A stretch of DNA of 12,547 nucleotides from a virus (taxonomy: Duplodnaviria; Heunggongvirae; Uroviricota; Caudoviricetes). Shown here one piece after another: positions 3,001 through 6,000 of the stretch; the stretch's first letter is position 1; each line of letters begins with the position of its first letter. The position numbers were made by a program. The DNA is taken from IMG/VR virus record IMGVR_UViG_2681813268_000016, positions 1-12,547 of that record. The stretch is one strand, 5' to 3'.

Positions 3001-6000
3001 TTGCGCATTGATGCCGAGATACGCTTCCAGTCTTCGCGGTCGTTGTCGATAACTTCATTTTTTGCCCAGCGATGGATGCTGCCGTCAATGTTTCCGGCAT
3101 CCACATCACCAGGCCAGAGAGCGTAGGCCAGTTCGTCATCCAGTGTTTTCCATGTCTGCTTGTATTCGCGATGAGTGGCAGCAATGACCGGGCTGATTTT
3201 TCCTGTTGAATTTTCAGTGTTCTGTTGATTGGCTCTGGCGCGGGCGAGATCAACAACAGACGTGTATTTTCCAGTCTCTTTGCGCTCTGCGTCCTGCCGT
3301 TTTTTCCAGTTACGTAATTCAGCCTGAATTTCGGGCCATTTGGCACCCGGATTACATTTGTGTTTAACCCATCCGATAGCGAACAGTTTGCGTTCCGGAT
3401 ACATAGCGTTAATTTCAGGCGTTTTCATCAGTGCTTCAACGATATGCCCGTCAAAGGTAGCAACGTCTTCCTGCAGTAATTCCTGCGCGTCAATCGCCAT
3501 ATCAACGGTGATGTTTTCACATGTACCGAACTTAACCAGGACCGCGTTCTGTACTTCAAGGGACAGCTTGTCAAAATTGACGTTCATCGGATCGGATTCT
3601 GGTTCGACCGGAATAAAGGAAGCGGATTCCTCATCCCAGCGGTTTTCCTGCATATATTCAGCATCCCAGGAATCGAGGGCAGGGCGGGGTATACCGGGTT
3701 TATCCTCGCAGACAAGAAATTTATAAGCGCAGTCCTGAGCAGCCGGATAATGTTCCAGGAATTGCCAGTGAAATTTTGCGCGGGCGCGACGTTCATCACC
3801 GGCTTCAATGGCAGTGGCTACAGCGACGGCACCTTCTTCCTTTATTGCCTGTTCGTCCGGAATGGCGGCGCAAATAAAGACTTTACTCATTTTGTTTTAA
3901 CCTCATTACAGATTTCAGGGTGAACGAATCCCTGCCATTGCTGGCATTTTTAATCCGTTGGTATGGCGTTAATATGGCTGGCGGGTTATCCAGCCGGTAT
4001 TTCGTTATTCAGGTTCAGCGATACTTTTTTTAACGGGAGGCATTCACCGGGGATTTTTTGTTCGTCCCTTACCTGAATGCAGGATGACTTACTGTCATAA
4101 ATTCCGGTAATCACATTTTGTGGCTCACCCGTTATAAGAAAAACGGTCATCACCAGTGCAAATGCTGAAGTCACTGCTGTTCTCCGATAATACCAAGTTC
4201 AAGAAGGGCAATTCTGGAAAGTATGGAATTATCATTGAGAAGATAAGGTTCATATTTTCTCATCTTAATGGCATCTTCCGTAAACTCCCGGTTACTGAGC
4301 AGAACACCAATATCAAAACAACCTTCAGACGTATTAACGTTTGGTAATAACGTTTCCATTATCGCGTCCTCAACAATGAATTTTGTGATGCAGTGCCTGG
4401 TGCCTCCAGGTGACGTTAACCAGTTAACAATTAACGCCGGATACAGAGAGTCCACCCATAACACTGTTTTTGGTTTTAACTGTTCCGCGTGCGCTGAGCC
4501 GCATTCACCGCATCACAAAATTCACTTTAAAAACGGCGGCAGAGCAGTCACGGAGTAAAACTGATACCGCCAAACGTCACCAGAAAATTGATAACAGAGG
4601 GCGTTGCAGCGGGGTTGTCACTTAAGCGTATGGTCAACCTGACAACTCGGTGTCCTCAACGGGGAAGGAATAACCCCGCCATACTTACCGCCGCGCCATT
4701 TCGCGGGTTGCCACAACCGGAAGCGCACGGTCGACGAAAATTTAACGACAGGCTATCTATGAACCAGCTACCTCGCCGTGCGCTTTCGCGTTATGGTCTG
4801 ACTTTTCAGGGAAATATCCTTTCAGTAAACTGTCAGTGCCGGATGCTCACCCGTGTCCGGCGCACGCACTCCACCTCACCCGTGGAGAATTCCTTAATTA
4901 CCAACCTTAGCTTCGTTGGTTAGCTATTAACGCGGGTATGTAATCATTCTGGCAATGCTTAATGCCGCTGCTTTTTCCAGATTGGTGATATCCTGCTCCA
5001 GAGCGGACAGATTTTCAGCCTGCTTAGCCCTGGCTTCATTAGCCCATTTCAGATCCTGCGCTGCATTAATTTTCTGGCGCATCCACTCATAAAGTTCATC
5101 ATCGGTATAGTCTGGCGCGATTATGACGGGTTCTCGTTTCTGCATACTGATTCCTCGCGGTGCTACTTCGCTTATCAGCCGTTAGATTTTGCCGAGCTGG
5201 AAAGCGCCTGTTTAAACTCACTGAAGCTGAGAGCTTCTTCGCCTTCGGCAAGGTCTTCGAAGTATTCTTCGTAAGCCTTTTCCATGATTGTGTCGAAATC
5301 CATATCACTCACCTGAGTTTCTTTCCAGCCAGCGACGGGCACCATTTTCGGTTTTAAACGTTTTGCTTTTGGTATACGTCATCGCGGTGAACGTACCGTC
5401 CTGGTTGGGGAACACGCCACATACCAGAGATTCGCTGTTGCCAAGATCGATAGTATCCATGCTGACCTCATTTCCCCTTAACGCTGGGGTAGCGGAACTA
5501 AAAACCTGCTGCGCTGTTATACAAAGTGTTCCCGCCGTCATGTTCATACGCCTCGGGCTGGCTACTTACCCCCTGACCACTGCTTGGTAACTCGAAGTAT
5601 TGCCCGGCGTTCTGTGGGGCGGGGTGGGTTGGTATGTTGTTAAGGTAACAAGAGTTACCTTTCGAGTCAATACAATGTTGCAAAAGGTACGTTTGAGGGC
5701 ATAAAAAACCCGCAATGAATGCGGGTTCTGACTCAGTCTAAGTATTGATGTATTTGTGAAACTTTACCTTTAATGGTGTAACCACCATTCAGTTCGATGG
5801 GTTTGTAAAGCGGATTCAGTGACAACAGATAGATGTTTGGTCCGTCAATCGCAACTTTTTTTAGTGTTACGTTTGGCGTTCCTTCCAATTGGATTAAGAT
5901 TATTTTTCCCACCAGTTCTCTAATGTTACTTGAGCATGGTGTGATCAGCACGGTAGATCCGTCGGGGATGGTTGGGAGGCCGTTAGAGTTTGTCATCGCA

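Follow-up and report, generated by a model that had tools for sequence, protein, structure and literature searches.

In the Qin prophage of Escherichia coli K-12 the dicBF operon is laid out with dicC on the opposite strand, then dicA, a promoter, ydfABC-DicF-dicB-ydfD and a truncated exonuclease gene. Its promoter dicBp is regarded as the analogue of the early-left promoter PL, with DicA and DicC as analogues of cI and Cro (PMC10448788; also PMC6832061) and Rem as an antirepressor (PMC10448788), while RNase III and RNase E both process the dicBF mRNA (PMC10448788) and dicBF has been reported from multiple prophage contexts (Balasubramanian et al., PMC5069750). Phage resistance conferred by DicB (PMC6832061), and the overlap of dicB with ydfD, lysis by YdfD and its offset by DicB (PMC8835842), have also been published. 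Here we analyze the corresponding operon in a stretch of 12,547 nucleotides (nt) of a Caudoviricetes virus (IMG/VR record IMGVR_UViG_2681813268_000016, positions 1 to 12,547), referred to throughout as the window. Positions 5460-3986 of its minus strand very probably represent dicBF in its standard form, within the early-left (PL) operon of a lambdoid prophage of E. coli. The PL transcript that would lead into this module begins with a structured leader RNA.

The dicBF module and its frequency in E. coli

The order along the minus strand from 5460 to 3986 is ydfA, ydfB, ydfC, the small RNA DicF, dicB and a YdfD-like DUF1482 gene. This is the Qin gene order with the sizes given in the original prediction (reading frames of 51, 42 and 72 amino acids (aa), DicF, a 62-aa DicB and a small protein in the YdfD position), and all of these were found where it had placed them, with matches well past anything chance would produce. 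YdfA (5305-5460, minus strand, 51 aa; Pfam PF07151, DUF1391, 96.2 bits) shares 49 of 51 residues with its K-12 counterpart, YdfB (5175-5303, minus strand, 42 aa; PHROG 2061) shares 41 of 42, and YdfC (4927-5145, minus strand, 72 aa; PHROG 1744) is identical at all 72. Shine-Dalgarno-like sequences precede all genes of the dicBF region. DicF, 52-53 nt long, lies at 4529-4585 on the minus strand, 341 nt past the ydfC stop and 174 nt ahead of the dicB start in a long untranslated region; the match to Rfam RF00039 (4534-4585) covered model positions 1-52 of 52 and, at 72.5 bits (E=9.5e-15), exceeded the gathering score of 48. Its terminator-like 3' hairpin, with a fold of -16.6 kcal/mol, is followed by UUUUU, and the T-run reaches 4529. 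The predicted similarity of 4529-4586 to dicF was thereby confirmed, with a single substitution relative to K-12 in an unpaired base immediately before the U-tract; with one unpaired base changed, pairing to ftsZ should be the same as in K-12.

DicB (4171-4359, minus strand, 62 aa) matched its family profiles over positions 1-62 of 62 and cleared both curated cutoffs, scoring 129.5 bits in Pfam PF05358 (cutoff 27) and 111 bits in NCBIfam NF049927 (cutoff 100). Overall it is identical to K-12 DicB at 38 of 62 residues, and the suggestion that the N-terminal ~30 aa are conserved and the C-terminal half diverged proved correct, with 25 of the first 31 residues identical and 13 of the last 31. Alignment of 18 members of the DicB family showed an N-terminal stretch of 36 residues that is near-invariant and a C-terminus for which two groups of alleles, along with hybrids, can be told apart; the C-terminal allele of the window, here called type B, is of the group to which K-12 does not belong. 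The YdfD-like protein (3986-4174, minus strand, 62 aa; PHROG 1092) also exceeded its Pfam cutoff (PF07358, DUF1482, 56.4 bits against 25), has a hydrophobic N-terminal segment at residues 4-16 as in K-12 YdfD, and is also called in strain C11 by the Prokaryotic Genome Annotation Pipeline (PGAP). Its GTG start overlaps the dicB stop TGA by 4 nt (GTGA), within CAGCAGTGACT, and a GGAG Shine-Dalgarno sequence lies 7 nt upstream of the start, inside dicB. The overlap had been picked out in the original prediction and is there as described; K-12 has one of the same length, ATGA, which is among the features already published (PMC8835842).

The spacer between DicF and dicB (4377-4524, minus strand) is 96-100% identical to K-12 and contains a long-range inverted repeat with arms of 19 base pairs (bp) at 4506-4524 and 4377-4395, which are 95% complementary, bracket most of the spacer and end just upstream of the dicB Shine-Dalgarno sequence. 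The duplex of these arms may be of the kind that RNase III cuts. Most of the same interval (4382-4522) gave a sub-threshold Rfam match to STnc100, at 33 bits against a gathering score of 47.

The module is common. Matches to 3900-5800 were present in 4759 of 5426 complete E. coli genomes, with a median of 2 and up to 10 places per genome; the junction of ydfA, leader, PL and repressor, annotated as a LexA family protein next to ydfA, was found at 80% coverage or more in 702 of these genomes, and the variant dicB-3'/ydfD allele in 789. The exact DicB, YdfD-like, YdfA and repressor proteins can each be found, under the corresponding names, on 1000 or more public contigs, whereas the 12.5-kb window as a whole is covered to 80% or more in only 13 genomes. 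In E. coli C11 the interval 3900-5800 is matched along its entire (100%) length with 97.1% identity; C11 is annotated there with DUF1482, dicB, ydfC, ydfB, DUF1391 and a LexA family protein, and its prophage has the Q, lysis, terminase, head and tail genes complete. The same gene order was seen in annotated K-12, C11, FDAARGOS_1059, 55989, O157 and the functional phage Tritos. In Tritos, where DicF is annotated in the record, the module adjoins a 139-aa CI, in 55989 a 135-aa helix-turn-helix (HTH) repressor, and in an O157:H7 prophage an HTH repressor together with relBE. Because it is present and annotated in hundreds of genomes, the dicBF operon of the window is an already known, ordinary module in its usual place, and in itself it adds nothing new: PGAP names the module in thousands of E. 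coli genomes and the products have been characterized in K-12.

What the window does contribute is precise module boundaries. In a three-way alignment with K-12 and C11, DNA identity to Qin was 96-100% from ~5497, ~37 nt upstream of the ydfA ATG, to ~4300, at about codon 20 of dicB; past ~4300 it was no more than 40-78% over the remainder of dicB and over ydfD, rising again near the start of the exonuclease gene. These boundaries show independent reassortment among the immunity region, the leader, the ydfABC-DicF core and the segment formed by dicB-3' and ydfD. A mosaic junction had been predicted at this locus, and breakpoints do exist at ~5497 and inside dicB; what did not stand is the idea that the PL position is special, the Qin operon occupying the same position behind its own repressor.

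Several observations weigh against reading the locus as a standard dicBF module. The C-terminal 31 residues of DicB match those of the K-12 protein that has been studied at only 13 positions, and the YdfD-like protein is identical to K-12 YdfD at 29 of 63 positions (46%). The C-terminal net charge of the YdfD-like protein is +1 as against -3 in K-12 YdfD, and the published model of lysis through IspG inhibition invokes a negatively charged C-terminal domain. The putative PL promoter (5642-5670, minus strand; TTGACT, 17 nt, TACCTT), read from the sequence, was not called by a consensus promoter scan because its -10 element, TACCTT, is weak. No N-like antiterminator is present here that could account for read-through of the DicF terminator to dicB, xis and int. 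Lastly, neither the window nor the related, complete C11 prophage yielded a homolog of the Rem-type antirepressor.

The leader RNA at the start of the PL transcript

A structured leader RNA of ~105 nt lies on the minus strand at 5528-5631, at the 5' end of the PL transcript, and is supported by covariation; the match of the window to a covariance model of it spans 5518-5645, scores 113.9 bits and is the sole copy. When the sequences preceding ydfA or ydaG in eight loci were aligned, the interval between the PL start and a point ~65 nt ahead of ydfA stood out as a module of its own. This module is nearly identical downstream of four different immunity regions, namely those of the window and C11, of Tritos, of Rac of K-12 and of an O157 prophage, and is without counterpart in K-12 Qin and 55989. 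The paired elements are H1 (5631-5626 with 5533-5528), H1' (5625-5621 with 5573-5569), H2 (5620-5614 with 5580-5574) and H3 (5609-5603 with 5587-5581), the last enclosing a highly conserved loop of 15 nt at 5602-5588 (C-AAUAC-NN-CGAGUUA) with two variable positions, which caps a three-part hairpin arm. Between the strands of this framework lies a near-invariant block of 34 nt at 5567-5534, AAGUAGCCAGCC-N-GAGGC-NNAN-GAACAUGA-M-GGC, in which GAGG, read as a Shine-Dalgarno sequence, is followed 9 nt later by a conserved AUG (5541-5539), present in 133 of 137 distinct copies. This AUG opens reading frames of 4 to 78 codons that start MTA or MKA and are not conserved beyond, and the 3' strand of the outer helix falls in codons 3-5 of the short, non-conserved upstream reading frame.

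In ydfA-linked copies the leader AUG is in frame with ydfA, so that in the window the ATG at 5541 would give a 78-aa long form of YdfA, which is open in most ydfA-linked copies and is annotated in phage Tritos. An 80-aa extension of ydfA from the ATG at 5547 was considered as a conserved protein and rejected, its middle being read in different frames in the window and in C11; since the frames differ among close relatives, conservation there is at the level of nucleotides. The sequences GCAGCAGG(T) and GTTCCGC, at 5490-5527 on the minus strand, are conserved in Escherichia, Serratia, Pectobacterium and Pantoea irrespective of reading frame, and Arsenophonus copies have a boxA/boxB-like sequence in the place of these two downstream blocks.

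The stems differ by lineage yet stay complementary. In H3 the paired strands are CACGAAG/CTTCGTG in Serratia, CGCTGAG/CTCAGCG in Pectobacterium, CCGGGA/TCCCGG in Winslowiella and CAGA/TCTG in Arsenophonus; H2 takes the forms GGCAAT/ATTGCC, CGCAT/ATGCG, AAACTG/CAGTTT and CCAC/GTGG, and H1 the forms CAGCAAC/GTTGCTG, CCAACC/GGTTGG and CAACAAC/GTTGTTG. On a plain MAFFT alignment of 27 copies, 22 of the 25 pairs change on both sides, and compensatory cells numbered 121, against 45 +/- 5 in shuffled alignments (0 of 500 reached the observed count) and 14-39 in slid controls. Several pairs were without exceptions, for example one with CG in 13, AU in 10, GC in 2, GU in 1 and UA in 1. A covariance model built from the 27-copy alignment recovered 98 copies in 100 loci, and on the model alignment all 25 pairs covary, with 343 compensatory cells against 135 +/- 11. 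As the structure was derived by inspecting the same sequences, the percentage of paired cells is biased upward, and the compensatory counts are less affected. The G-U pairs fit the strand in the PL sense. H1 has two registers because about half of the copies carry a bulged A.

The single-sequence fold was no more stable than shuffled sequences (z = +0.88), and RNAalifold on a raw MAFFT alignment including Arsenophonus found almost nothing; the structure emerged only from comparison lineage by lineage and was then tested by pair counts. There was no match to the covariance model in Qin, 55989, HK022, HK639 or the loci with chance matches to the core, none in Rfam 15 (for the window at E up to 1, for ten other loci at gathering scores) and no second, PR-side copy in the window. 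The core strings were not found in the phage-related literature searched, where we also found no description of such an RNA.

An 18-nt core of the leader was searched in one genome per species and in IMG/VR. It was present in Arsenophonus, in many copies, and in Symbiopectobacterium, Phlomobacter, Serratia, Pectobacterium, Pantoea, Winslowiella, Superficieibacter, Escherichia and Shigella, as well as in at least 120 viral contigs of IMG/VR. Chance matches in the genome pattern scan came close to the number expected, which for 17 specified bases in 596 Gb is roughly 69, and were removed by demanding the other conserved blocks; the covariance model does not match them. A match in the "Actinobacillus" phage pPE4 was set aside as an indication of spread across families, the early region of that phage being Rac-like (DicA, YdaT, Kil, RecE). 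In one contig of Arsenophonus nilaparvatae there were two copies (5288-5414 and 7145-7275 of that contig) 1.9 kb apart on one strand, each flanked by a gene for an HTH repressor and one of the N type, an arrangement that suggests immunity/early-left modules in tandem or nested within one another.

On this evidence we lean toward the leader being an undescribed family of structured cis-regulatory RNA in lambdoid prophages across the Enterobacterales. From its position it could control the early-left operon and hence DicF, DicB, xis and int, and possible routes include ribosome loading, Rho-dependent polarity, transcript stability and modification of the polymerase. As to function we can at best guess: either a device at the 5' end that would govern ribosome loading on the leader reading frame, and through it Rho-dependent polarity or the stability of the early-left transcript, or else an RNA acting on the polymerase. 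Replacement of N/nut was considered and rejected: Arsenophonus copies precede a boxA/boxB-like sequence and then a gene matching Pfam N_peptide, and since an N-type gene follows the leader there, the leader is no simple substitute for N. If confirmed, the leader would be the most important of the features of this locus, as a conserved control element placed right where early-left transcription begins in many prophages of enterobacteria.

Repressor, operators and induction of the operon

Exactly three copies of the palindrome GTAAC-N4-GTTAC are present in the window (5645-5658, 6408-6421 and 6456-6469), where ~0.01 exact matches would be expected by chance. The first covers the spacer and -10 element of PL and forms the operator OL (5659-5644, minus strand, GGTAACTCTTGTTACC), which overlaps PL; the other two, 48 bp apart, lie between repressor and cro and define the OR region (6408-6469). 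A third OR operator at 6432-6446 was too degenerate to claim. The cI-like repressor gene (5733-6449, minus strand, 238 aa as annotated; HTH_3 62.5 bits and Peptidase_S24 61 bits in Pfam) is followed by a strong intrinsic terminator at 5702-5727 on the minus strand, which has a fold of -15.1 kcal/mol (z = -4.75), a 10-bp stem and a U-run. The start annotated for the repressor, 6449, falls between the operators; a 224-aa version begins at the ATG at 6407, which is supported by most homologs and is probably the true start. On the plus strand at 6499-6714 is a cro-like gene of 71 aa (P22_Cro family, Pfam PF14549, 59.4 bits). Control of PL/OL by the cI-like protein is the natural reading, and binding to the operators is predicted.

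The repressor HTH is 57% identical to DicA over 65 residues, the Cro-like protein is 39% identical to DicC by BLASTP, and the DicA family model NF007257 of NCBIfam gave 79.5 bits, below its cutoff of 101, with the HTH part alone covered. Judged by these similarities, the immunity region is a relative of DicA/DicC and no foreign type. The original prediction of a cI-type repressor at a lambda-like PL/OL is therefore upheld as far as an HTH-plus-S24 protein with a Cro partner and three palindromes is concerned, and fails where it set this immunity apart from DicA/DicC.

The repressor had also been called LexA-type, and here too the result was divided. It aligns with lambda cI (PDB 3bdn) over residues 11-217, and has the S24 domain, an Ala-Gly site (Q98-A99-G100, aligned with the QAG cleavage site of lambda cI) and a Lys-Lys (K183-K184, aligned with the FKK motif and invariant among homologs), but the catalytic serine is gone: GDAMT stands where lambda cI has GNSMT (Ser149), so that an alanine codon (GCG, 5999-5997) replaces the S24 nucleophile. 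The alanine is fixed in this allele: it was found in 14 of 14 members of the repressor cluster that were read, and also in an 89%-identical cluster (P0061) and in a 70%-identical Salmonella protein (P0064). Serine was found in 88%- and 66%-identical clusters (P0062 and P0065) and in all more distant homologs aligned except P0074, which is degenerate at the G-x-S-M motif. LexA S119A and equivalent cI mutants do not self-cleave. The replacement of the nucleophile makes direct self-cleavage stimulated by RecA doubtful, and a direct response of this allele to RecA appears unlikely; a widespread immunity allele may thus be naturally non-self-cleaving, uncoupling dicBF from direct SOS induction. A catalytically dead S24 domain in a common immunity allele would bear on the question of what induces dicBF.

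As a working model, the repressor (5733-6407/6449) in a lysogen would bind GTAAC-N4-GTTAC at PL and OR and keep the operon silent. With repression lifted, leftward transcription would run through the structured leader, ydfA-ydfB-ydfC and the long untranslated stretch with DicF, and then through dicB, the overlapping ydfD-like gene, the 823-aa exonuclease gene, xis and int. If the functions established in K-12 are carried over by sequence identity, DicF would repress ftsZ, manX, xylR and pykA mRNAs by base pairing; DicB would bind MinC, bring it to the septum and block FtsZ rings, and would also block ManYZ-dependent entry of phage DNA; and YdfD would act as a lysis protein whose effect is offset by DicB. 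With such functions the module would fill the role that kil has in lambda and kilR in Rac. As the repressor is without the nucleophile serine, derepression would probably not proceed by RecA-stimulated self-cleavage.

An alternative explanation could be that the repressor is still SOS-inducible, through cleavage in trans at Ala-Gly by another S24 protein or through a LexA-controlled antirepressor encoded elsewhere, in which case dicBF would be an SOS-induced division block. Conservation of the Ala-Gly site and Lys-Lys is in line with this, LexA and cI can be cleaved intermolecularly in vitro, and the matching places in E. coli genomes, a median of 2 and up to 10, make co-resident Ser-bearing repressors likely. 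LexA-controlled antirepressors of the Gifsy type offer a precedent for the second route (discussed in PMC10448788). Trans cleavage is inefficient for known repressors, however, and no antirepressor gene was recognized in the window by Pfam scan or in the C11 prophage, and we consider continued SOS inducibility unlikely. It is also possible, with a somewhat lower probability, that the locus is a Qin-like remnant, silent and decaying, which a non-cleavable repressor holds locked so that the operon is effectively never expressed. This would fit the alanine in all cluster members read, the lack of a recognizable Rem-type antirepressor, and the finding that no repressor more than 60% identical occurred among 50,697 deposited phage genomes. 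However, close Ser-bearing relatives of the repressor are likewise absent from that phage collection, so the absence is not specific to the Ala form; the window has every reading frame intact, from int through the replication genes, and the C11 prophage has the full set of genes named above; and the DicA-repressed operon of Qin itself turns on spontaneously in ~1% of cells (PMC10448788). Least probable, and improbable in its own right, is that type B DicB and the variant YdfD have changed partners or function and no longer act via MinC/FtsZ and IspG, serving for instance superinfection exclusion only, since the divergence of the DicB C-terminal half with its allele groups and hybrids, and of a YdfD-like protein with opposite C-terminal net charge, is set against full-length matches of both DicB alleles above curated cutoffs, retention of the invariant C-terminal I45, S47 and A50 and of the hydrophobic spacing, the commonness of both alleles (789 of 5426 genomes for the variant), and a reverse primer for EDL933 dicB (PMC6915034) that by our own reading encodes ...IFGERQ, nearer to ...IIGEQQ of the window than to ...PKGCAQ of K-12. 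The reading of the locus as a standard dicBF module under a DicA-related repressor is the one we retain.

Neighboring genes and comparison with known systems

The window runs from integrase (1-1119) through excisionase, an 823-aa exonuclease, the dicBF region, repressor, cro and a YdaT-family gene to replication genes. The exonuclease gene (1419-3890, minus strand; Pfam PF16473, 226.6 bits) is the next gene of the early-left operon. Its sole recognized domain is an Rv2179c-like 3'-5' exonuclease in the C-terminal residues 642-813, with no Pfam match in the N-terminal 640 residues, and this type is labeled exonuclease VIII in some phage records. A truncated "exonuclease" is annotated at the corresponding position of the K-12 locus, and the 823-aa gene is the intact counterpart of the IS2-truncated ydfE of K-12. 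Inside the O-like replication gene (7144-8121) there were four direct repeats at 7485-7559, with 15-bp spacing (TTGACCCGT-like), which are probably origin iterons.

The window has the same dicBF genes as Qin, ordered alike and with an unchanged strand relation to the repressor, and it shares with Qin the 4-nt dicB/ydfD overlap and an exonuclease gene downstream. It differs in that the repressor has an S24 C-terminal domain and 224/238 aa rather than 135 aa; in its operators and promoter, with a leader ~100 nt longer that contains a structured element absent from Qin; in carrying the other allele of the dicB 3' half and ydfD; and in having exonuclease, xis and int intact where IS2 disrupts them in K-12. 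These comparisons point to module reassortment as the only difference from Qin, that is, a related immunity allele, a longer leader and an alternative dicB-3'/ydfD allele. The same applies more widely, as dicBF modules in E. coli C11, 55989, sequence type 131 (ST131), O157:H7 CP-933/Sp, the Shiga toxin-producing E. coli prophage PPompW and the phages Tritos, mEp460_ev081 and Evi differ in the combination of modules alone, the type B dicB/ydfD allele being common to the window, 55989, PPompW and relatives in O157.

For the leader, the closest described elements are putL and putR of HK022 and the putL-like RNA of HK639, which are likewise structured RNAs starting within a few nt of the 5' end of the PL transcript. 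The put RNAs promote terminator read-through in cis, an effect that mutations in the zinc-binding domain of rpoC block; what the leader has in common with them is its place directly downstream of PL. The leader here has a different architecture, one long hairpin arm plus the conserved 34-nt block closed by an outer helix, and its identity with HK022 put or an HK639 put-like RNA was rejected, there being no BLAST similarity to the HK022 immunity region or put and no covariance-model match in HK022 or HK639. For the operon as a whole, lambda kil and Rac kilR are the nearest parallels, both likewise small inhibitors of host division placed in an early-left operon that the immunity repressor controls. 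According to the literature, the action of Kil and KilR on FtsZ involves no MinC targeting. Their proteins are unrelated to DicB and neither locus has a small RNA partner. Rac does share with the window the structured leader and a DUF1391-family gene, ydaF, and the presence of the leader in Rac of K-12 makes it directly testable there.

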